From Eledone cirrhosa (lineage: Eukaryota), in contig OZ024741.1 in the NCBI GenBank assembly GCA_964016885.1, forward strand, positions 183,644,001 through 183,708,000: a stretch of DNA of 64,000 nt, read 5' to 3'. Both the position numbers and the translations under genes were made by a program. Numbering within the stretch: the first letter of the stretch is position 1; the number at the start of each line of letters is the position of its first letter. Of this stretch, positions 8,397 to 60,124 are shown one piece after another. The notes under the pieces are model-generated. The model did no database searches. It saw nothing but the letters and a program-made list of their open reading frames with translations, and was not told the origin of the DNA.

Positions 8397-8465
<69 letters not shown>

Positions 8466-8470
<5 letters not shown>

Positions 8471-8658
8471 AACCAGTAAGACCCCGACAGCTGAGCTCAA
8501 GCCGTTTCGACGGCTAATTCAGTCCAGAATTAGCCGTCGAAACGGCTTGAGCTCAGCCGTCGGGGTCTTACTGGTTCCTATTACCCACTCTACTACCCTA
8601 AGTACTTGAGTACTTTGGTGCGTTATGGTCCACCTGGTTCCTTACCACATTTCCTTCG

Positions 8659-8660
<2 letters not shown>
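8466..8660 (+). mobile_element. Fold-back cassette: palindrome 8466-8581 made of two hammerhead 3' halves, plus ~80-bp tail
   Basis: Arms 8466-8520/8527-8581; each arm read outward approximates GAATTAGCCGTC-GAAA-CGGC-ttgagctca-GCCG-TC-GGGGT; tail 8581-8660 is the reverse complement of 9376-9455. Confidence 0.75.
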
Positions 8661-8712
<52 letters not shown>

Positions 8713-9226
8713 CCCTTTGGGAAAACCACGTGTCTTATAGTGGTGCTTACTGCTAGAACGCGCACCCGCGAGGTCCAGACCGAAAAACTTGTTGACGAAG
8801 TAAATTCCTTTGTTCTGTCGTCAAAAACCATTAACTTGCAGACCCCTGCAAGTGGATTTTGTCGATTTCGGATTTACAGAAACCTAGCGGAGATGTTATA
8901 TATTATATGTGATGTATATTGTATGGTATATATTATGTGTTGTCTATGATATTAACGCGATGGTCCAGGTCAGTCAAAGATTTTTCCTGAGTTCGGTTTT
9001 CTTCGTCGCTATGGTCACTGTGGCCCGTCTGTCGATCGCTGTATTTGATTTGCAAAGCTGTCTAAACGTAATGTTATAACTCTAGGGATTATTCCCTATT
9101 GAGTGCTTAGCTGCACACCGAAACTGCATTCGTTAGCTTGGCTGCATCCAAAAGCTTCGTTGATGCTGTGCTAAATTTTGTATATATATATATATATATA
9201 AATACCATATTTATTTTTTGATACCC

Positions 9227-9277
9227 AGATTCCTGATGATTTCTAAAGAATGAAACAGTTCTAGTCCTGTAGAATCT
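9227..9277 (+). ncRNA. Type I hammerhead ribozyme
   Basis: Stem I AGATTC/GAATCT; CTGATGA (9233-9239); stem II TTC/GAA closed by U.U; GAAA (9252-9255); stem III CAG/CTG; GUA cleavage after 9271. Confidence 0.85.
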
Positions 9278-9375
9278 CATCTATATTAAAACTTTTATAC
9301 TCTGCAATGTATTGAGTACCTTACTTACTGTGGTTACCTCCGATTCAACCCGGAATAACGTATATATATATATAT

Positions 9376-9572
9376 AACGAAGGAAGTGTGGGAAGGAACC
9401 AGATGGACCATAACGTACCAGAGTACTCAATACTTAGGGTAGTAGAGTGGGTAATATGAAAATGTTTAACCCCGATGGCAGAGCTCAAGCCGTTTCGACG
9501 GCTAATGCTGCAGTCCAGAAATAGCCATCGAAACGGCTTGAGCTCTGCCGTCGGGGTTAAACATTTTCATAT
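9376..9572 (-). mobile_element. Second, diverged copy of the fold-back half-hammerhead cassette (inverted relative to 8466-8660)
   Basis: Palindrome 9454-9572 containing GAAACGGCTTGAGCTCTGCCGTCGGGG; shares its tail with 8581-8660. Confidence 0.75.
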
Positions 9573-9721
9573 ATATATATATATTAAGACAGGGGGGAAG
9601 AAATAAATGGCTTCACTTGTGCTTTCAACAAATTTATATTCTTCACAAAATCCCAAAAGAATTTTTTTCCGGATTAGAAAAAATTTTTTCTTAAAAAAAA
9701 AAAATTATTTTATAAATTAAG

Positions 9722-12916: not shown

Positions 12917-13490
12917 TACACAGATACACACACACATACATATATCCACCACTAGTCTCTGATGACGAGATCACGCTTCAGTGAACAGCGAACAAATATT
13001 GCTGCCGGGAGATATCCCATTTTGATTAGAATTGCTTGTCACGTTCCCATGCTGGAATCGATAATACTTCATTCACTAAGTTGGAAGCATGGAAAAATTG
13101 AGGGGGAAAAAAAAAGAGGGAGAGAGAGAGGGGGGGGATAAATATATATATATATAGGGAGAGAGATGGAGAGGGAGAGATAGATAGGCAGATGCAGTGA
13201 GTAATGTAAATAGATATATTAAATAAATGAAAAAAGACAGTAACGATAGAATGAAAAGGGGGGAAGAAGGGGAGCGAAAGATAATAATAATAATAACAAT
13301 GATGATGATGATGATGATGATGGTGATAACAAAAACAAGAAGACAGAAAATATGGCGATGAAAGATGATGAAGATGAAGGAAATGAGGAGGAAGTGGAAG
13401 TGAAGAAGAAGAAGAAGAAGAAGAAGAAGAAGAAGAAGAAGAAGAAGAAGAAGAAGAAGAAGAAAAGGAAGGTAGGAAGGTAGAGAACAG

Positions 13491-14540
13491 GAACAATAGC
13501 TACTACAACAACAATAGCTACTACAACAATAACAGCAACAGCAACAATAGCTACTACAACAACAATAGCTACTACAACAATAACAGCAACAGCAACAATA
13601 GCTACTACAACAATAACAGCAACAGCAACAATAGCTACTACATCAACAATAGCTACTACAACAATAACAGCAACAGCAACAATAGCTACTACAACAATAA
13701 CAGCAACAGCAACAATAGCTACTACAACAATAACAGCAACAGCAACAATAGCTACTACAACAATAACAGCAACAGCAACAATAGCTACTACAACAATAAT
13801 AGCAACAGCAACAACATTGACAGCAACAATAGCTACTACAACAATAACAGCAACAACAACAACATTGACAGCAACAATAGCTACTACAATAATAACAGCA
13901 ACAACAACAATGACAGCAACAATAGCTACTACAATAACAACGACAACAACAACAACAACGGTAACAATAACGACAGCAACAACAACGGTAACAATAACGA
14001 CAGCAACAACAACAAGAGTAACAACAGTAACAACAACAATGACAACAACAGTAATAACAGTAACAACAACAACAGTAACAACAACAGTAACAACAGTAAC
14101 AACAACAGTAACAACAGTAACAACAACAACAACTACGACAACAACAGTAACAACATTAACAACAGTAACAACAACAACTACGACAACAACAACAACAACT
14201 ACGACAATGGCAACAACAGTAACAACAACTACAACAACAACAGTAACAACAGTAACAACAGTAACAACAACAACAACAACTACGACAACAACAACTACGA
14301 CAATGGCAACAGCAGTAACAACAACTACAACAACAACAGTAACAGCAACAACTACGACAACAACAACTACGACAACAACAACTACGACAACAACAACTAC
14401 GACAATGGCAACAGCAGTAACAACTACAACAACAACAGTAACAACAGTAACAACAACAAACACAACAACAACTACGACAACAACAACAGTAACAACAGTA
14501 ACAACAACAACAACAACAACTACGACAACAACAACAGTAA
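13491..14540. repeat. Degenerate (ACA)-based trinucleotide array with a 33-bp higher-order unit in its left half
   Basis: Unit ACAATAGCTACTACAACAATAACAGCAACAGCA repeated; grades into (ACA)/(GTA)/(ACG) mixtures; preceded by (GAA)n at 13403-13463. Confidence 0.92.
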
Positions 14541-14642
14541 CGAGAAACTGCTCAGCCAATGAATGGAGGCAGAGAGAAACAGCGATTAAGAGAAAGTTGG
14601 TTTGAAGATTAACTGTGATGAATGGAAAAATCAGGAACGATA

Positions 14643-17600
14643 TGGTGGTGGTGGTGGTTGTGGTGGTGGTGGTGGTGGTGGTTGTGGTGGTGGTGGTGGT
14701 GGTGGTTGTGGTGGTGGTGGTGGTGGTGGTGGTGGTTGTGGTGGTGGTGGTGGTGGTGGTTGTGTTGGTGGTTGTGTTCGTAGTAGTGTTGGTAGTTGTG
14801 GTGGTGATTGTGGTGGTGGTTGTGTTGGTGGTTGTGGTGGTGGTTGTGGTGGTGGTTGTGGTGATGGTTGAGTTGGTGGTTGTGTTGGTGGTTGTGGTGG
14901 TGGTTGTGGTGGTGGTTGTTGTGTTGATGGTTGTGTTGGTGGTAGTGTTGGTGGTAGTGTTGGTGGTTGTGGTGGTAGTGGTGGTTGTGGTGGTGGTTGT
15001 GGTGGTCGTTGTGGTGATGGTTGTGACTGTGGTTGTGGTGGTGGTTGTGGTGGTGGTTGTGCTGATGGTTGTGTTGGTGGTAGTTATGGTGGTTTTGTTG
15101 GTGGTTGTGGTGGATATTGTGGTGGTGGTTGTGGTGGTGATCGTGGTGGTGGTTGTGGTGGTGGTTGTGGTGGTGGTGGTTGTGGTGGTGGTTGTGGTGA
15201 TGGTTGTGGTGGTGGTTGTGGTGGTGGTTCTGGCGGTGGTTGGGTTGGTGGTAGTGTTGGTGGTTGTGTTGGTGGTTGTTTTGGTGGTTGTGTTGGAGGT
15301 TGTGTTGGTGGTTGTGTTGTTGGTTGTGTTGAGGGTTGTGGCGGTTGTTGTGGCGGTGTCTGTGTTGGTGGTTGTGTTGGTGGTTGTGTTGGCTGTTGTG
15401 TTGGTGGTTGTGGTGATAGTTGTGCTGATGGTTGTGGTGGTGGTTGTGTTGCTGGTTGTGTTCGTGGTGGTGGTAGTGGTTGTGGTTGTGGTGGTGGTTG
15501 TGATGGTGGTTGTGTTGTTGGTTGTGGCGATGGTTGTGGCGGTGGTTATGGTGATGGTTGTGGCGGTGGTTGTGGCGGTGGTTTTGGTGATGGTTGTGGC
15601 GGTGGTTGTGGTGGTGTTTGTGGCGTGGTTGTGGCGGTGGCTGTGTTGGTGGTTGTGTTGGTGTTTGTGTTGGTGGTTGTGTTGGTGGTTGTGTTGGTGG
15701 CTGTGTTGGCTGTTGTGTTGGTGGTGTTGGTTGTGCTGGTGGTTGTGTTGGTTGTTGTGGTGGAGTTTGTGCTGGTGGTTGTGTTGTTGGTTATGGTGAT
15801 GGTTGTGGTGGTTGTTGTGGTGATGGTTGTGGTGGTGGTTGTGGTAGTAGTTGTGGTGGTGGTTGTGGTGGTGATTGTGGTGATTGTTGTGGTGGTGGTT
15901 GTGTTGGTGGTTGTGTTGGTGGTTGTGGTAGTGGTTGTGGTTGTGGTGGTGGTTGTGTTGGTGGTTGTGTTGTTGGTTGTCGCGATGATTGTGGCGGTTG
16001 TTATGGTGATGGTTGTGGCGGTGGTTGTGTTGGTGGTTGTTTTGGTGGTTCTGTTGAGGGATGTGTTGGTGGTTGTGTTGGTGGTTGTGGTGATGGTTGT
16101 GGCGGTGGTTGTGTTGGTGGTTGTGTTGGCTATTGTGTTGGTGATTGTGGTGATGGTTGTGCTGGTGGTTGTGTTGGTGGTTGTGTTGGTAGTTGTGGTG
16201 GTTGATGTGTTGGTGGTTATGGTGATGGTTGTGGTGGTTGTTGTGGTGATGGTTGTGGTGGTGATTGTGGTAGTGGTTGTGGTTTTGGTGGTGGTTGTAG
16301 TGGTGATTGTGGTGATGGATGTGGTGGTGGTGGTGGTGGAGGTCGTGGTGGTGGTGAGTGTGGTGGTGGTGGCGGTGAGTGTGGTGGTAGTTGTGGTGGT
16401 AGTGGTGGTCGTGGTGGTGCTTGTGGTAGTGGTAATTGTGTTGGTTGTGTTGGTGGTTGTGGTGGTGGTAGTTGTGGTGGTGGTAGTTGTGGTTGTGGTG
16501 GTTGTTGTGTTGGTGGTGGTTCTGGTGATGGTTGTGGTGGTGGTTGTGGTAGTTGTGGTGGTTGTGGTGGTGATTGTGTTGATGGTTGTGTTGGTGGTTG
16601 TGTTGGTGGTAGCTGTTGGTGGTGTATTGGTGATTGTGTTGGTGGCTGTGTTGGTGGTAGTTGTGTTGGTGTTGGTGTTGGAGGTTACGTTGGTGTTTGT
16701 GTTGGTAGTTGTGGTGGTTGTTGTGTTGATGGTTGTATTGGTGGTTGTGGTGGTGGTTGTGTTGGTGGTTGTGGTGCTGGTTGTGATGATTGTATGTGTT
16801 GTTGTGGCGATGGTTGTGGTGATGGTTGTGGTGGTGGTTGTGGTGGTGGTTGTGGTAATGGTTGTGGTGGTTGTGGTGGTGGTTGTGGTGGTGGTTGTGT
16901 TCGTGGTAGTGTTGGTTGTTGTGTTCGTGGTTGTGTTGGTGGTGTTGGTGGTGTTGGTGGTTGTGGTGGTTATTGTGGTGGTGTTTGTGGTGATGGTTGA
17001 GTTGCTGGTCGTGTTGGTGGTTGTGGTGGTGGTTGTGGTGGTGGTTGTATTGGTGGTAGTCTTGGTGGTTTTGTTGGTGGTAGTGTTGGTGATAGTGTTG
17101 GTGGTTGTGATTGTGGTTGTGGTGATGGTTGTGGATGTGGTAGTGGTTGTGGTGGTGGTAGTAGTGGTATTTGTGGTGGTGTTTGTGGTGGTGGATGTGG
17201 TGGTTATTGCGCTGATGGTTGTGGTGGTGGTTGTGTCAGTGGTAGTGTTCGTGGTTGTGGTGGTGGTTGTGCTGATGGTTGTGTTGGTGGTGGCTGTGTT
17301 GGTGGGTGTGTTGGTGGGTGTGGTGGTGGATGTGGCCGTGGTTGTGTTGGTGGTTGTGGTGGGTGTGTTGGTGGTTGTGGTGGTGGTTCTGGTGGTGTTT
17401 GTTGTGATGGTTGTGTTGGTGGTTGTGTTGGTGGTTGTTTTGGTGGCTATGTTGGCTATTGTGTTGGTGGTTATGGTGATGGTTGTGCTGGTTGTTTTGT
17501 TGATGGTTGTGGTGGTGGTTGTGGTAGTGGTTGTGGTTGTGGTGGTGGTTGTGGTGATGGTTGTGGTGGTGTAGGTCGTGGTGGTGGTGGTGAGTGTGGT

Positions 17601-20600
17601 GGTGGTGGTAACTGTGGTGATGGTGGTGGTGGTAGTGGTAGTGAGTGTGGTGGAGGTCGTGGTAGTGGTGGTTATGGTGGTGGTAGTTGTGGTGAGTGTG
17701 GCGGTGAGTGTGGTGGTAGTAGTGGTGGTGATGGTGGTGGAGATTGTGGTGGTGGTCGTGGTGGTAGTGGTGGTTGTGGCGGTTGTGTTGGTGGTAGCTG
17801 TTGGTGGTTGTAATGGTGATTGTGTTGGTGGTAGTTGCGTTGGTGTTTGAGTTGGTGTTTGAGTTGGTGGTTGCGTTGGTGTTTGTGTTGGTAGTTGTGG
17901 TGGTTGTTGTGGTTGTGTAGGTGGTTGTGGCGGTGGTTTTGATGGTTGTGTTGGTGGTTGTGGCCATGGTTGTGTTGATGGTTGTGGTGGTGGTTGTGGT
18001 GGGGTTTGTGGTAATGGTTGTGGTGGTGGTGCTGGTTGTGGTGGTGGTTGTTTTGATGGTTGTGTTGGTGGTTGTGTTGGTGGTTGTGGCCATGGTTGTG
18101 GTTGATGGTTGTGGTGGTGGTTGTGGTGGGGGTTGTGGTAATGGTTGTGGTGGTGGTGCTGGTTGTGGTGGTGGTTGTTTTGATGGTTGTGTTGGTGGTT
18201 GTCGTGGTGGTTGTGGTAATGGTTGTGGTGGTGGTTGTGTTCGTGGTAGTGTTGGTGGTTGTGTTGGTGGTAGTGTTGCTGTTAGTGTTGGTTGTTGTGT
18301 TGGTGGCTGTGGTGGTGGTTGTGGTTGTTTTTGTGTTGGTGGTAGTGTTGCTGGTAGTGTTGGTGGTTGTGGTTGTGGTTGGGGTGGTGGTTGTGGTGGT
18401 GGTTGTATTGGTGGTAGTCTTGGTGGTTGTGTTGGTGGTAGTGTTGGTGATAGTGTTGGTGGTTGTGATTGTGGTTGTGGTGATGGTTGTGGTTGTGGTA
18501 GTGGTTGTGGTGGTGGTAGTAGTGGTATTTGTGGTGGTGTTTGTGGTGGTGGATGTGGTGGTTATTGCGCTGATGGTTGTGCTGGTGGTTGTGGTAGTGG
18601 TTGTGGTTGTGGTGGTGGTTGTGGTGATGGTTGTGGTGGTGGTGGTGTAGGTCTTGGTGGTGGTGGTGAGTGTGGTGGTGGTGGTAACTGTGGTGATGGT
18701 GGTGGTGATAGTGGTAGTGAGTGTGGTGGAGGTCGTGGTAGTGGTGGTTATGGTGGTGGTAGTTGTGGTGAGTGTGGCGGTGTGTGTGGTGGTAGTAGTG
18801 GTGGTGATGGTGGTGGAGATTGCGGTGGTGGTTGTGGTGGTAGTGGTGGTTGTGGCGGTTGTGTTGGTGGTTGTGATGGTGGTTGTTGTGGTGGCTGTGT
18901 TGGTGGTAGCTGTTGGTGGTTGTAATGGTGATTGTGTTGGTGGTAGTTGCGTTGGTGTTTGAGTTGGTGTTTGAGTTGGTGGTTGCGTTGGTGTTTGTGT
19001 TGGTAGTTGTGGTGGTTGTTGTGGTTGTGTTGGTGGTTGTGGCGGTGGTGTTGATGGTTGTGTTGGTGGTTGTGGCCATGGTTGTGTTGATGGTTGTGGT
19101 GGTGGTTGTGGTGGGGTTTGTGGTAATGGTTGTGGTGGTGGTGCTGGTTGTGGTGGTGGTTGTTTTGATGGTTGTGTTGGTGGTTGGGTTGGTGGTTGTG
19201 GCCATGGTTGTGGTTGATGGTTGTGGTGGTGGTTGTGGTGGGGGTTGTGGTAATGGTTGTGGTGGTGGTGCTGGTTGTGGTGGTGGTTGGTTTGATGGTT
19301 GTGTTGGTGGTTGTCGTGGTGGTTGTGGTAATGGTTGTGGTGGTGGTTGTATTCGTGGTGGTGTTGGTGGTTGTGTTGGTGGTAGTGTTGCTGTTAGTGT
19401 TGGTTGTTGTGTTGGTGGCTGTGGTGGTGGTTGTGGTTGTTTTTGTGTTGGTTGTAGTGTTGCTGGTAGTGTTGGTGGTTGTGGTTGTGGTTGGGGTGGT
19501 GGTTGTGGTGGTGGTTGTATTGGTGGTAGTCTTGGTGGTTGTGTTGGTGGTAGTGTTGGTGTTAGTGTTGGCGGTTGTGTTGGTGGTTGTGGTGGTAGTT
19601 GTGGTGGGTTTGTGGTTTTGGTTGTGGTGGTGGTTGTGGTGGTAGTTGTGTTGATGGTTGTGTTGGTGATTGTTGTGGTGGTTGTGTTGATGGTTGTGGT
19701 GATGGTTGTGTTGGTGGTTGTGGTGGTGGTTGTGGTAATTGTTGTGTTGGTGGTAGTCTTGGTGTTAGTGTTGGCGGTTGTGTTGGTGGTTGTGGTGGTG
19801 GTTGTGGTGGGTTTGTGGTTTTGGTTGTGGTGGTGGTTGTGGTGGTGGTTGTGTTGATGGTTGTGTTGGTGGTTGTGGTGGTGGTTGTGTTGATGGTTGT
19901 GTTCGTGGTTGTGTTCGTGGTAGTGTTGGTGGTTGTGTTCGTGGTTGTGTTGGTGGTAGTGTTGGTGGTTGTGTTGGTGGTTGTGTTGGTGGTGTTGGTG
20001 GTGTTGGTGGTTGTGGTGGTTATTGCGTTGGTGTTTGTGGTGATGGTTGAGTTGGTGGTTGTGTTGGTGGTTGTGGTGGTGGTTGTATTGGTGGTAATCT
20101 TGGTGGTTTTGTTGGTGGTAGTGTTGCTGGTAGTGTTGGTGGTTGTGGTTGTGGTTGTGGTTGTGGTTCTGGTTGTGGTTGTGGTAGTGGTTGTGCTGGT
20201 GGTTGTGGTGATGGTTATGGTGGCGGTGAAGGTCGTGGTGGTGGTGGTGAGTGTGGTGGTGGTGGTAAGTGTGGTGATGGTGGTGGTTGTAGTGGTGGTG
20301 AGTGTGGTGGTGGTTCTGGTGGAGGTCGTGGTGGTGGTGTTAGTGGTGGTGAGTGCGGTGGTGGGTGTGGTGGAGGTCATGGTGGTTGTAGTAGTGGTGG
20401 TGATGGTGGTGTAGATTGCCGTGGTGGTTGTGGTGGTAGTGGTGGTTGTGGTGGTGCTGGTGGTAGTGGTAATTGTGGTGGTTGTGTTGCTGGTTGTGAT
20501 GGTGGTAGTTGTGGTGGTGGTTGTGGTAGTTGTGGTGGTTGTGTTGTTGATTGTGTTGGTGGCTGTGTTGGTGGTAGTTGTGTTCTGTGTTTGAGTTGGT

Positions 20601-23600
20601 GGTTGCGTTGGTGTTTGTGTTGGTAGTTGTGGTGGTTATTGTGATGGTGGTTGTGGCGGTGGTTTTGATGGTTGTGTTGGTGGTTGTGGCCATGGTTGTG
20701 TTGATGGTTGTGGTGGTGGTTGTGGTGGTGGTTGTGGTAATGGTTGTGGTGGTGGTGCTTGTTGTGGTGGTGGTTGTTTTGATGGTTGTGTTGGTGGTTG
20801 TAGTGGTGGTTGTTGTAATGGTTGTGGTGGTGGTTGTGTTCGTGATAGTGTTGGTGGTTGAGTTGGTGGTAGTGTTGCTGTTAGTGGTGGTTGTTGTGTT
20901 GGTGGCTGTTGTTGTGGTGGGTGTTGTGGTTTTGGTTGTGGTGGTGTTTGTAATGGTGGTTGTGTTGATGGTTGTGTTGGTGGTTGAGGTGGTGGTTGTG
21001 TTGATGGTTGTGTTGGTGGTTGTGGTTGTGGTTGTGTTCGTGTTAGTGTCGGTGGTTGTATTGGTGGTTGTGTTCGTGGTAGTGTTGGTGGTTGTGTTGG
21101 TAGTTGTGGTGGTGGTTGTGGTGCTTGTTGTGTTTGTGGTGGTGGTGGTGATTGTGGTGGTGGTTGTACTGTTGGTTGAGTTGGTGGTTGCGTTGGTGGT
21201 TGTGGTGCTGTTTGTGATGGTGGTTGTGGTGGTGGTTGTGGTGGTTGTTGTGTTGGTGGTAGTGTTGCTGGTAGTGTTGGTGGTTGTTGTTGTGTTGGTA
21301 GTTGTGGTGGTACTCGTGGTGGTTGTTGTGTTGGAGGTTGTGGTGGTGGTTGTAGTGATGGTTGTGTTGGCGGTTGTGTTGGTGGTTGTGTTGGTGGTTG
21401 TGGTGGTGGTTGTGGTAGTAATGTTTGTGGCGGTGGTTATTGTGGTGGTTGTGTTGGAGGTTGTATTGTCGGTTGTGGCAATGGTTGTGGTAGGGGTTGT
21501 GGTGATGGTTTTGCTGATGGTTGTGGCGGTGGTTGTGGTTGTGCTTGTGGCGGTGGTTGTGGCTGTGGCTGTATTGGTGGTTGTGTTGGTGTTTGTGTTG
21601 GTGGTTGTGTTGGTGGTTGTGTTGGTGGCTGTGTTGGCTGTTGTGTTGGTGGTGGTAATTGTGCTGGTGGTTGTGTTGGTAGTTGTGGTGGTGGTTGTGG
21701 TGCTTGTTGTGTTTGTGGTGGTGGTGGTGATTGTGGTGGTGGTTGTACTGTTGGTTGAGTTGGTGGTTGCGTTGGTGGTTGTGGTGCTGTTTGTGATGGT
21801 GGTTGTGGTGGTGGTTGTGGTGGTTGTTGTGTTGGTGGTAGTGTTGCTGGTAGTGTTGGTGGTTGTTGTTGTGTTGGTAGTTGTGGTGGTACTCGTGGTG
21901 GTTGTTGTGTTGGTGGTTGTGGTGGTGGTTGTAGTGATGGTTGTGTTGGCGGTTGTGTTGGTGGTTGTGTTGGTGGTTGTGGTGGTGGTTGTGGTAGTAA
22001 TGTTTGTGGCGGTGGTTATTGTGGTGGTTGTGTTGGAGGTTGTATTGTCGGTTGTGGCAATGGTTGTGGTAGGGGTTGTGGTGATGGTTTTGCTGATGGT
22101 TGTGGCGGTGGTTGTGGTTGTGCTTGTGGCGGTGGTTGTGGCTGTGGCTGTATTGGTGGTTGTGTTGGTGTTTGTGTTGGTGGTTGTGTTGGTGGTTGTG
22201 TTGGTGGCTGTGTTGGCTGTTGTGTTGGTGGTGGTAATTGTGCTGGTGGTTGTGTTGGTGGTTGTGGTGGTGGTTGTGGTGATGGTTGTGGTGGTTGTTG
22301 TGGTGATGGTTGTGGTGGTGGTTGTGGTAGTGGTTCTGCTGGTGGTTGTGGTGGTGATTGTGGTGATGGTTGTGGCGGTGGTTGTGTTGGTGGCTGTGTT
22401 GGTGGTTGTGGTAGTGGTTGTGGTTGTGGCGGTGGTTGTGATGGTGGTTGTGTTGTTGGTTGTGGCGATGGTTGTGGCGGTGGTTATGGTGATGGTTGTG
22501 GCGGTGGTTGTGGCGGTGGTTTTGGTGATGGTTGTGGCGGTGATTGTGGTGGTGTTTGTGGCGTGGTTGTGGCGGTGGCTGTGTTGGTGGTTGTGTTGGT
22601 GGCTGTGTTGGTGGTTGTGGTAGTGGTTGTGGTTGTGGCGGTGGTTGTGTTAGTGGTTGTTTTGTTGGTTGTGGCGATGGTTGTGGCGGTGGTTATGGGG
22701 ATGGTTGTGGCGGTGGTTGTGTTGGTGATTGTGTTGGTGGTTTTGGTGGGGGTTGTGTTGGTGGTTGTGGTGATGGTTGTGGCGGTGGTTGTGATTGTCT
22801 TTGTGTTGGTCGTTGTGGTGGTGGTTCTGGTGGTGGTTGTGGTGATGGTTGTGTTAGTGATTGTGTTGGTGGCTGTGTTGGTGATTGTGGTGGTGGTTGT
22901 GTTGGTGATTGTGTTGATTGTTGTGTTGGTGGTTGTGGTGGTGGTTCTGGTGGTGGTGGTTGTGGCGGTGGTTGTGATTGTCGTTGTGTTGGTCGTTGTG
23001 GTGGTGGTTCTGGTGGTAGTTGTGGTGCTGGTTGTGTCGGTGGTTGTGGCGGTGGTTGTGGCGGTGGTTGTGTTGGTGGTTGTGGTGGTGGTTCTGGTGG
23101 TGGTTGTAGTGATGGTTGTGTTTGTGGTTGTTTTGTTGGTTGTGCTGGTGGTTGTGGTGATGGTTGTGCTGGTGGTTGTGTTGGTGGTTGTGGTGGTTGT
23201 TGTGGTGGTGGTGGTTGTGGTGATGCTTGTGGTAGTGGTTGTGGTCGTGGTGGTGGTTGTGGTACTGATTCTGGTGATGGTTCTGTTGGTGGTTGTGGTG
23301 GTGGTTGTGGTGGTGGTAGTTGTGGTGGTGCTTGTGGTAGCGGCTGTGGTTGTGATGGTGCTTGTGGTGGTGTTTGTGGTGGTGGTTGTGGTGTTGGTTG
23401 TGTCAGTGGTTGTGGTGATGATTGTGTTGGTTTTTGAGGTGGTAGTTATGTTGATTGTGGTTGTGGCAGTAGTTGTTGTGATCGTAGTTGTGGTGGTTGC
23501 ATAGGTGGTCGTCTTTGTGTTGATGGTGGTTGTGAAACTTGTAGGAGGTAGTGGTTTTGTTGGTAGACGTTGTGGCTGCTGTGGTAGTGGACGTAGGTTT

Positions 23601-48652: not shown

Positions 48653-48723
48653 TGACGTAAATGGGAGTCGAACCCACATCTGTGGTTATCGCGACCACTC
48701 TGCTACCATTACACCAACACATC
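48653..48723 (-). pseudogene. tRNA-like cloverleaf (pseudogene or head of a tRNA-derived repeat)
   Basis: GATGTGT acceptor pairs with TTACGTC-A; A box TGGTGTAATGGT; anticodon arm GTGGT-cgcgata-ACCAC; T arm GTGGG-TTCGACT-CCCAT; lacks U33 and purine 37. Confidence 0.72.
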
Positions 48724-57799: not shown

Positions 57800-58458
57800 T
57801 CTCTTTCTCTTAATTTCGAGTATATTTTTTTGACCCGCCACCTTCCTGGTGGCAAGGTTGTAAAAGAAAAGAAATTGTCATCCCTTGAATCGCATGAATG
57901 TTTTGCAAATTTTGAAGGTGCCAGCTATCGCAGCCATTTGTAGACTATGAATTAGGGAGCTGCGCTTTTTGTCCGCAAATCCAAGTTCAGTCATACTTTG
58001 GTCTAAGAGGGTTGTTATATAACCCGTAGCTCCAATAATGATGGGTATGAAGCTAAAGGTGTATCTTGGATACTGGATTTGTAAACTCCTCATCAATGGT
58101 CCGTAGATGTCCTCCTTCTCCTGTATTTTTCTGACAACGTTTACATCAAGTGGGCAGCTGATCTCCACAACAGAACACGTTTTCAATGTGTGGTCCCAAA
58201 CAACAATATCAGGCCGGTTGTGCTTTAATTTGGTGGCAGTTTTTATTTTCAGGTTCCACCAGTATTCCTTAGTGCCATCTGTCTCAATATATTCTTCCTC
58301 GTTTGTTGTTAATTTTTTTTCCGAAGTGCGTTCCAGATGGTTCTAGCTATCCCATCGTGTCTCATGGGGAGGTAGTAGCGAGATGACATTCTTTCGCAGC
58401 TGGCAACAATGTGGCTTACATCCTCGATCTTTGTTTTACATAGCCTACATTTATTGTC
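57800..58458 (-). mobile_element. RLE-type (R4/Dong- or NeSL-like) non-LTR retrotransposon, 3' portion
   Basis: CRLCKTKIEDVSHIVASC (CCHC), RHD, HNRPDIVVWD..VVEISCP..EKEDIY (PD..E.K restriction-like endonuclease), PIIIGATG; (TATG)n at both ends. Confidence 0.88.
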
Positions 58459-58480
58459 AGTATGTATGTATGTATGTATG

Positions 58481-60124
58481 TATGGTTTTCGTGCTGGACG
58501 CGGCACTACTGATATGATCTTCTCAGCTAGACAGCTCCAGGAGAAGTGCATGGAACAAGGCTTGGATCTGTATCAGGTTTTTGTCGATCTGACAAAAGCT
58601 TTCGATACTGTTAACAGAGATGCATTATGGAAGGTTCTCCAGAAACTTGGTTGCCCTGATAAGTTCCTTGCTTTAGTTAGGTCTTTCCATGACGACATGA
58701 AGGCTTGGGTTAATGTCGGAGGTAACATGTCGGAGCCTATCTCAGTAAAAAATGGAGTGAAACAGGGGGATATTCCAGCACCGACCCAGTTTGCCATATT
58801 CTTTGCAATGGTTTTCTGTATTGCATTCAGGAATTGCGAGCATGGTGTTTACATCCGATATCGAACCTCAGGCAGCATATTTAACATCAGGCGCTTTGCT
58901 ACAAAGACAAAAGTATTTACATCAATCATAAGAGACCTCTTGTATGCAGATGATTGCGATCTTGTAGCGCACACAGAGAGTGATATGCAGCACATGTGGA
59001 ATGCATTTTCTGACGCTTGCACTGCCCTAGGATTGACTGTCAGTCTCAAGAAAACCGTCGTCATGTACCAACCTGCCCCTGGTAAGCAGTACACTGAACC
59101 AAATATCTATGTGTATGGTAAACGACTTGGAGTGGTTGATCAGTTTGTCTACCTGGGAAGCACTGTCAATCGATACGGCAACCTTGACAGTGAAATCTCA
59201 CTTAGGATTAGGAAAGCAAGTGATGCTTTCGGAAAGCTAGAAAGGCGACTCTGGGGTCGGCGAGACATATGCAGGAGGACAAAGGTAAAGGTGTACAAGG
59301 CATGTGTGCTCTCTTGTCTTCTTTATGCCTGCGAGACCTGGGTCACATATCGACACCATCTTAAGCAATTGGAGCGTTTCCATCAGATGTGTCTCAGACG
59401 GATCCATGGCGTTCACTGGAGGGACCACATCAGTGATGTCGAGATTTTGGAAAGCTCTATGTGTGACAGTATAGAAGCTCTTGTGCTTAAGCAACGACTC
59501 CGTTGGAGTGGTCACCTTGCCAGGATGAAGGATTCTAGAATACCAAAACAACTCTTTTATGGAGAGTTCGTTAAAGGAAAACGACCGCCACATAAACCAA
59601 AAAAGAGGTATAAGGATTCCTTGAAAGCCTCTTTGAAAGACGCTAACATCTCTGCTGATACATGGGAAAATATTGCTGCTGATCGTAATAAATGGAGAAA
59701 GATTGTATATGAGGGAAAAGTTGCCTTTGAGGCATCTCGAATCGCATACGAGAAAGTAAAGCGGGATGTGAGGAAGGGCATTGCTGTTGCACTTCCAGAC
59801 GGCGAGGGTCCTCCTATGGTGCTGACATGCAGCGTCTGTGCGAGACTCTGCCTAAGCAAAGCTGGACTCGAAAGTCATCTGCGCAGTCATAAAGTAAGAC
59901 CAGTGGTTGACTACCAGGCTGCTGTTGGAGATGCTACTCATCATACTTGCCAAACATGTGGTAGAGAATGTAAATCAGCAGGAGGGCTCAAGCGACATGC
60001 AAAAGTACATGAACTCCAGCCACAGCCGACTATTCCCAGTGAATGTTTTGGTTGCCGACCCTGTGCAAGACATTTTAGATCATTGGCTGGGCTAAAAAGC
60101 CACATTCGATCGCAGCGCTGTTAG
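58481..60124 (+). CDS. RTE reverse transcriptase (5'-truncated) with three C-terminal zinc fingers
   Basis: YGFRAGRGTTDMIF, FVDLTKAFDTV, GVKQGD, LLYADD, FVYLGS, LLYACETW, RLRWSGHLARM; CSVC..H..H, CQTC..H..H, CRPC..H..C. The first ~24 aa of the listed ORF (58409) are read-through from flanking DNA. Confidence 0.88.
   Translation, partial: YGFRAGRGTTDMIFSARQLQEKCMEQGLDLYQVFVDLTKAFDTVNRDALWKVLQKLGCPDKFLALVRSFHDDMKAWVNVGGNMSEPISVKNGVKQGDIPAPTQFAIFFAMVFCIAFRNCEHGVYIRYRTSGSIFNIRRFATKTKVFTSIIRDLLYADDCDLVAHTESDMQHMWNAFSDACTALGLTVSLKKTVVMYQPAPGKQYTEPNIYVYGKRLGVVDQFVYLGSTVNRYGNLDSEISLRIRKASDAFGKLERRLWGRRDICRRTKVKVYKACVLSCLLYACETWVTYRHHLKQLERFHQMCLRRIHGVHWRDHISDVEILESSMCDSIEALVLKQRLRWSGHLARMKDSRIPKQLFYGEFVKGKRPPHKPKKRYKDSLKASLKDANISADTWENIAADRNKWRKIVYEGKVAFEASRIAYEKVKRDVRKGIAVALPDGEGPPMVLTCSVCARLCLSKAGLESHLRSHKVRPVVDYQAAVGDATHHTCQTCGRECKSAGGLKRHAKVHELQPQPTIPSECFGCRPCARHFRSLAGLKSHIRSQRC

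Follow-up and report, generated by a model that had tools for sequence, protein, structure and literature searches.

Paired long and short arms in palindromic stubs of a putative hammerhead-bearing Penelope-like element in Eledone cirrhosa

The Penelope-like elements (PLEs) of the Hydra clade, as described by Craig et al. 2021 (PMC8557442), are generally <3 kb in length, have (TA)n targets and a single ORF encoding an RT followed by a GIY-YIG-like end, with RW[RK], DKT and CxCx5C motifs. Their pLTRs, which contain a hammerhead, are present as partial tandems, an inverted 5′-truncated copy adjoins the 5′ end and there is a tail, of 30-40 nt, at one end only. The element described here shares this organization but has a tail of 80 nt and a period of 3.1 kb, slightly above the size given for Hydra and, unlike the Hydra PLEs, most of its copies are reduced to ~200-nt palindromic stubs. 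Its hammerhead has a U3-A8 core and a ~40-nt insert closed by stem II, whereas the six Hydra rows listed in the same source have CUGA cores.

The related element Poseidon, from the green anole, nicks and extends both strands of an AT-rich target in vitro, has two internal RT start sites that define its tail and has a ribozyme at the pLTR-ORF junction (Frangieh et al. 2024, PMC11167929), features that have counterparts here. In that study, the two strands did not differ in their choice of start site, uncut RNA was the main substrate and RNA reads that end at the ribozyme cut were not seen. The first two of these results do not predict a strict pairing of long with short arms, whereas in E. cirrhosa this pairing is nearly strict and fossil ends are found at the predicted cut. 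The PLE hammerheads of Cervera and De la Pena 2014 (PMC4209133) resemble the one here in being type I, in their location in the pLTR, in the U3-A8 core variant, in an extra nucleotide before G10.1 and in a palindromic stem III loop. Those of that paper are minimal, whereas here there is a stem III of 4-5 bp and a long stem II, and in vivo evidence for PLE hammerheads is there stated to be absent. Short non-coding, pLTR-derived hammerhead sequences mobilised by PLEs have also been described as non-LTR retrozymes (bioRxiv 10.64898/2026.07.22.740005) but these are head-to-tail tandem monomers whereas the stubs here are head-to-head, with one lone tandem. The origin of the tandem and inverted PLE insertions and the role of the hammerhead are given as open questions in PMC8557442 and PMC4209133. 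An inverted truncated copy and a one-sided tail are, then, known features of PLEs. The literature search returned no paper on strict long+short pairing or on insertions ending at a ribozyme cut, and these two features appear to be new as far as that literature shows; Repbase may already hold the family.

Two fold-back units and their parent element

The window, the whole stretch of DNA that was analysed, is 64,000 nt of contig OZ024741.1 (forward strand, 183,644,001 to 183,708,000) and contains two fold-back units, each ~200 nt, 87% alike, in opposite orientation and of different subfamilies. Positions within the element are counted from the G of GAAA, which places the predicted cut at +23, the end of a short arm at +43 and the end of a long arm, that is one with the 80-nt tail, at +123. 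In unit 1, the short arm (8466..8520, minus strand) starts 12 nt upstream of GAAA, takes in stem III and the predicted cut, between 8486 and 8485, and reaches the near start site. The long arm (8521..8662, plus strand), which is 96% identical to the parent pLTR, extends from 18 nt upstream of GAAA across the predicted cut, between 8561 and 8562, and through the tail to the far start site. (TA)n tracts, assigned to neither strand, lie at the 3′ ends of the short (8401..8468) and long (8660..8709) arms. Unit 2 begins in a (TA)n tract (9361..9376) at the 3′ end of a long arm of another subfamily (9374..9506, minus strand), which runs from ~10 nt upstream of GAAA over the predicted cut, between 9474 and 9473, and through the tail. 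A strandless filler of 5 nt, or up to 7 (9507..9511), separates this from the short arm (9512..9572, plus strand), which starts 18 nt upstream of GAAA, and so further 5′ than its long partner, crosses the predicted cut between 9552 and 9553, and ends in a (TA)n tract (9570..9583). The spacer between the units (8710..9360) is not element sequence; it has no match to the parent, and parts of it resemble the flanks of other loci. With opposite orientations and different subfamilies, the units are two separate insertions.

The palindrome at 8466-8581 has a length of 116 nt, with 55-nt arms paired at 54 of 55 positions around a 6-nt centre, and the single mismatch between the arms of unit 1 falls at a subfamily-diagnostic CpG site. 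The one at 9454-9572, of 119 nt, is paired at 49 of its first 51 positions and has a ragged centre. The first-pass annotation had read each palindrome outward as the stem II 3′ strand, GAAA, stem III, GUC and a stem I strand, with CUGANGA in neither, and had noted that the variants after GGGGT differ between the cassettes but are common to both arms of each. Both observations hold, and GUC is followed by GGGG. It had also placed the end of the short arm at a (TA)n tract, as is the case in both cassettes, but overlooked the 80-nt tail that is present on one side only and is also (TA)n-ended. Fold-back joints of the same family are present in contigs from public sequencing runs; the window's own axis, with 31 letters on either side, was not among the public-run contig pieces listed.

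A scan of the window with Rfam gave no hammerhead and only a tRNA-like match (48653-48723, minus strand, 36.7 bits) that is probably a tRNA-derived repeat. Elsewhere, the window contains an (ACA)-rich array (13486-14541) that precedes an 8.9-kb G/T-rich array with a 12-nt unit and extreme strand skew (14643-23499), and a 581-codon frame (58379-60124, plus strand) with RVT_1 and C2H2 zinc fingers, a fragment of a non-LTR retrotransposon unrelated to the palindromes.

The 16-mer of the arm has 70,853 exact matches in the 3.0 Gb of genome searched and the reversed control has none, so the arm is not a chance sequence. Extension of the pattern to -30 left 4,695 matches, and most of the 30 loci examined share hundreds of upstream bases. 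In L122, one of 20 larger stretches taken from the genome, an inverted truncated copy is followed by pLTR-ORF-pLTR, and a partial pLTR tandem, an inverted truncated copy and a one-sided tail are also found in L125 and other long loci. The L122 ORF has 786 codons and RT motifs. Of 7,998 scored sequences, 661 are homologous to it at E ≤0.001, and none bears a useful name; sequence searches against Pfam, PHROGs and the PDB gave nothing informative. The ORF contains RWR (RWK or RWR in the homologues), DKT, a CxCX5C linker, CxxC and CxH near the end, and a VIY...YIG motif that is conserved in the homologues, with no CCHH on reading the protein and the homologue alignment. The structure model (pLDDT 89) has TERT as its best fold match (Foldseek E 6e-8; VIA comparison Z 17.8, rmsd 4.3, 291 aligned). 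The C-terminal part is nearest to GIY-YIG Atlas clusters (0.95-0.96), with the Pfam family on 59% of one cluster. No GIY-YIG chain is among the fold matches listed for the whole model, a list filled by RT, and a model of the lone domain has a pLDDT of 34. By sequence and model, the parent is predicted to be an autonomous PLE with a TERT-like RT and a GIY-YIG-like end, and its motifs and (TA)n target appear to fit the description of the Hydra clade, a likeness judged by eye. As an inverted truncated copy and a one-sided tail are typical of PLEs, the cassettes represent a known arrangement, shortened to an extreme. A tRNA-derived SINE was dropped as a candidate once the parent had been found. 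So was a MITE or fold-back DNA transposon, an alternative named in the first-pass annotation, as the arms belong to the 3′ end of an RT element and their 5′ extent varies.

The predicted hammerhead and ends at its cut

That the arm is the 3′ half of a hammerhead, as had been proposed from the window, is supported by the existence of intact copies, but their core is YUGANAA (U3-A8) rather than the CUGANGA then expected. The motif CTGANGA, 12-40 nt upstream, has 51 matches and the 30 examined are chance or foreign occurrences, with no intact copy. In the parent, the 5′ half of the ribozyme is ACCCC followed by YUGANAA, for which there are 5,658 matches. Among the 100 of these listed, position 8 is always A, all four bases are found at N7, and the core is U3-A8 in 76 and C3-A8 in 24. 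A C3-A8 core is unpaired and likely inactive; these 24 halves occur in long paired copies, possibly of a subfamily that is mobile without an active ribozyme.

The type I features present are three stems, a conserved core, the 3-8 pair, a variable N7 and G10.1-C11.1. In stem II, -1 to -11 are paired with a strand near -50 to -60, and a second hairpin lies within it. Of 19 distinct intact copies, 11 have all three stems in their lowest-energy fold, but the fold is no more stable than that of shuffled sequences (z-score -0.46) and an Rfam scan of the parent gave no hammerhead match. The ribozyme's 5′ strand, which lies ~50 nt further upstream and has a different sequence, is not in the cassettes, where the inverted arm corresponds to the 3′ strand in reverse complement.

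Some copies end at the predicted cut. There are 876 tiny long+short palindromes genome-wide and, among the 100 listed, read by eye, both arms end exactly at the predicted cut in 30, with a further 5 within one base of it. The palindromic stem III forms the centre of about half of the 100. Of the 30 joints, 10 are blunt, a form also obtainable from a CG overlap, 8 have one A or T and 12 have 2-6 nt between the arms. Joints with both arms at the predicted cut and 2-6 extra nt occur at 82 loci genome-wide and at none in a control placed 2 nt upstream, a control that needs four more fixed bases, including a CpG, which lowers the count but should not abolish it. All 19 of the 82 loci that were fetched are long+short. 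A cut-site joint with A, AG or AATT between the arms is also present in contigs from two runs of one sample, possibly the assembly's own. The simplest reading of these ends would be run-off on ribozyme-cut RNA, with a stall at the edge of the core as the alternative, and ends at this position suggest that the ribozyme cleaves in living cells.

Pairing, joints and 5′ ends of the arms

Close palindromes, those with an axis gap within the limit set by the search pattern, number 11,308. A long arm is paired with a short arm in 11,061 (97.8%). The others are long+long (133) or short+short (114), for each of which ~2,800 would be predicted if arms were chosen independently. By eye, (TA)n is present at both ends of 29 of 30 copies, and it flanks 19 of 19 cut-site loci. 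Loose contig ends in a public run fall at +43 and +123. In two long+long copies (L192 and L203, near 1700-1813), one arm extends 91 or 114 nt beyond the usual long end, a hint of rarer RT start sites further downstream.

The concordance of the arms was determined from the first 100 long+short rows, of which 92 were obtained; 91 of these are distinct, 88 are in register and 82 have both ends at -10 or further, with samples drawn from the first 49 Mb of one contig. The two arms of a copy differ at 1.3 of 46 sites versus 4.4 when shuffled (5,000 shuffles). Among the 82 copies, all 73 that are unambiguous (9 are ambiguous) have the same subfamily in both arms, with 27.5% expected. Where both arms depart in the same way from the common types, that departure is shared with other copies in 22 of 26 cases, which places its origin in the source. 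In long insertions, whose spacers are of kb length, the arms agree wherever the comparison is informative (L121, L130, L133 and L137); partner arms differ by 2 versus at least 28 for other copies at L121, and by 1 versus 10 at L133. For 6 of 12 long insertions, of a young subfamily, the partner arm is no closer than other copies, and these say nothing on concordance. Arms of two subfamilies are present in L007, L010 and, read by eye, 5 of 49 long+long rows. At five loci (L031, L039, L043, L051 and L053, near 1300-1520), selected by a pattern that favours the partner family, the arm is head-to-head with another family, the same at all five, whose minimal hammerhead has a canonical CTGAAGA core and a stem III that is TA-palindromic.

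The junctions are diverse, with filler in 38 of 88 and overlaps of 0-2 nt in the remainder, and fillers of at least 5 nt are largely local copies in 8 of 15 cases. The proposal made from the window that the inversion arose separately in each copy is borne out, the junctions being made anew at each insertion. At the 47 filler-free junctions, the long arm extends further 5′ in 27, the short arm in 13 and the two are equal in 7, and the commonest single junction type has the short arm 6 nt further 5′. In 13 of 53 cases, the long arm to which a short arm is joined ends 3′ of the core.

To locate the 5′ ends, the first 100 exact arm matches on contig 1 were used, unselected for upstream sequence. 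Of these arms, 14 end at 0 to -9, 65 at -10 to -24, 4 at -25 to -60 and 17 beyond, a density of ~5% per nt within the main stop interval versus 0.5% per nt over the next 36 nt. This stop is ragged over 12 nt, with peaks at -18 and -21, whereas the ribozyme-cut ends are sharp. Arms that reach only a short way and have no close inverted partner still end within -10 to -24 in 14 of 21 cases, and summed contig depth in a public run rises ~15-fold across the interval. For the 17 arms >60 nt, the partner also passes the interval in 12 (8 insertions), stops in the tail in 1 and is absent or unclear in 4, and so none of the 13 identified partners ends within it; one 50-nt arm has a partner that stops near GAAA. 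A stop common to both arms points to a property of the template. As short arms contain sequence that their long partners lack, and the stop is retained where there is no palindrome, copying of the short arm from the long cDNA is excluded as a general route. Tabulated against stem II, as the first-pass annotation had suggested, the breakpoints are non-random and lie mostly inside the region that stem II closes. Snap-back on stem II is not supported.

What we take to be an initiator-like motif is present at -18 and -22. A G that could be cap-derived is found at -19 in 16 of 40 versus 37 of 162 cases (p 0.04), in a weak and confounded test. A splice acceptor was discarded as the cause of the stop, as neither a peak of ends at -16 or -11 nor a common upstream exon was observed. 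One locus (L304, 645-1374; contig C1, 27.009 Mb) has a short arm and three head-to-tail 257-nt units, each extending from -21 into the beginning of the ORF, the last of which ends at the long site. Circular RNA or repeated template jumps would give such a retrozyme-like array. A non-LTR retrozyme was rejected as the identity of the family, as the units in the window are head-to-head and this, the only tandem seen, is bounded at -21 and not at the cut. At two other loci (L045 and L050, near 1300-1520), palindromes of other hammerhead-like elements switch into the arm at the same stop interval, and so other families in this genome may form the same stubs.

How the stubs may be made

In L1 twin priming, both target strands prime on one RNA, which results in an inverted 5′ segment and a joint with microhomology or filler, and the two cDNAs cover different segments of the RNA. 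Here, in contrast, the arms mostly overlap and both reach the same 5′ stop. We consider that the stubs were probably generated by two-ended priming on one RNA, with two fixed start sites, run-off at the 5′ end and end-joining. The element protein would nick both strands of the (TA)n target, and from both nicks the reverse transcription of one RNA would be primed, its two start sites being fixed and separated by 80 nt. Both cDNAs would then be copied to the 5′ end of the RNA and their ends joined, likely by host end-joining. The parent, the (TA)n target, the two fixed 3′ ends, the long+short pairing, the shared subfamily, the shared stop and the microhomology or filler at the joint are direct observations, from which we infer the single RNA, run-off at its 5′ end and the end-joining. 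The RNA would have a 5′ end of three kinds, mostly 10-24 nt upstream of GAAA, sometimes at the ribozyme cut and sometimes far upstream, the last in the long copies. A start of transcription within the ribozyme is our guess for the main stop, with not quite an even chance of being correct; it fits the peaks at -18 and -21, the presumed initiator-like motif and the L304 units that start at -21. A processing cut in the apical loop would be the alternative. The ragged ends, the weak result for a cap-derived G and the Penelope of D. virilis count against such a start. For that element, PMC2377424 and PMC4209133 place the start upstream of an intron whose end abuts the ribozyme, and the transcript there therefore starts upstream of the ribozyme. 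The ragged main stop, the two-subfamily copies and the 50-nt arm with a partner near GAAA count against priming on one RNA with run-off.

Priming of the two ends on two RNAs from the same active source locus, one per protein subunit, is unlikely. A burst from one locus would also give matching subfamilies, and the few two-subfamily copies and the five loci with an arm joined to another hammerhead family mean that two RNAs can be used, but two RNAs alone do not account for arms that stop together, be it at the cut, within the main interval or far upstream, or for 97.8% long+short pairs. We give rather less credence to both cDNAs stalling on a long, uncut RNA at ribozyme structure (the distal part of stem II or the core junction), followed by trimming and joining with no RNA end involved. 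In the folded parent, the main stop spans the 3′ strand of the distal hairpin, its ends are ragged, and the cut site coincides with the border of stem I and with that of a G run. However, chance stops should affect the two arms separately, whereas none of the 13 identified partners of arms >60 nt ends in the interval; the ends at the cut are sharp, with untemplated additions and a control of 0, and the head-to-tail units of L304 each start at -21.

The mechanism suggested by the first-pass annotation, snap-back of a first cDNA on the hairpin of stem II with self-priming of the second strand, now seems improbable. Concordant arms, long arms that more often extend further (27 versus 13) and an axis within the region closed by stem II are as it would predict, but the inverted arm is the 3′ strand in reverse complement, with the ribozyme's own 5′ strand absent from the cassettes, the short arm often has sequence absent from the long arm (13 of 47 filler-free junctions, and the 13 of 53 with a long partner that stops 3′ of the core), the loops are 0-2 nt with filler in 38 of 88, and the same stop occurs without a palindrome. 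It would survive only with later opening of the hairpin tip and reshuffling, and arms that do not overlap would still not be covered. An ordinary fold-back or MITE end, an assembly artefact, or the collapse and homogenisation of long inverted copies are very improbable and already contradicted, with the stem III class excepted, as about half of the 100 tiny palindromes listed are centred on stem III, as collapse at microhomology would give. The arms are the end of an RT-coding element and point outward into (TA)n, joints occur in independent contigs, the stop interval holds in the absence of a palindrome, and most symmetric variants recur in several copies, hence come from the source and not from homogenisation.

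With two-ended priming on one RNA as the preferred reading, the family may, tentatively and with rather less than an even chance, be a fossil record of one RNA primed twice, at two fixed sites and once per target strand, with its 5′ end captured by both cDNAs. More than 10,000 stubs would map a start inside the ribozyme, and so a 5′ copy unable to self-cut, and a few hundred would bear witness to cleavage in vivo by a U3-A8 hammerhead, with the cut RNA then integrated. Through the stubs, the genome has gained ~115-nt palindromes in (TA)n by the tens of thousands, and repeat annotation would likely miscall them as MITEs or SINEs. Simple counts set rules for any model, namely 97.8% long+short pairs, agreement of the two arms and of their stops, and ends that lie exactly at the predicted cut, and the open ORF in the young subfamily makes each of these rules testable with purified protein.
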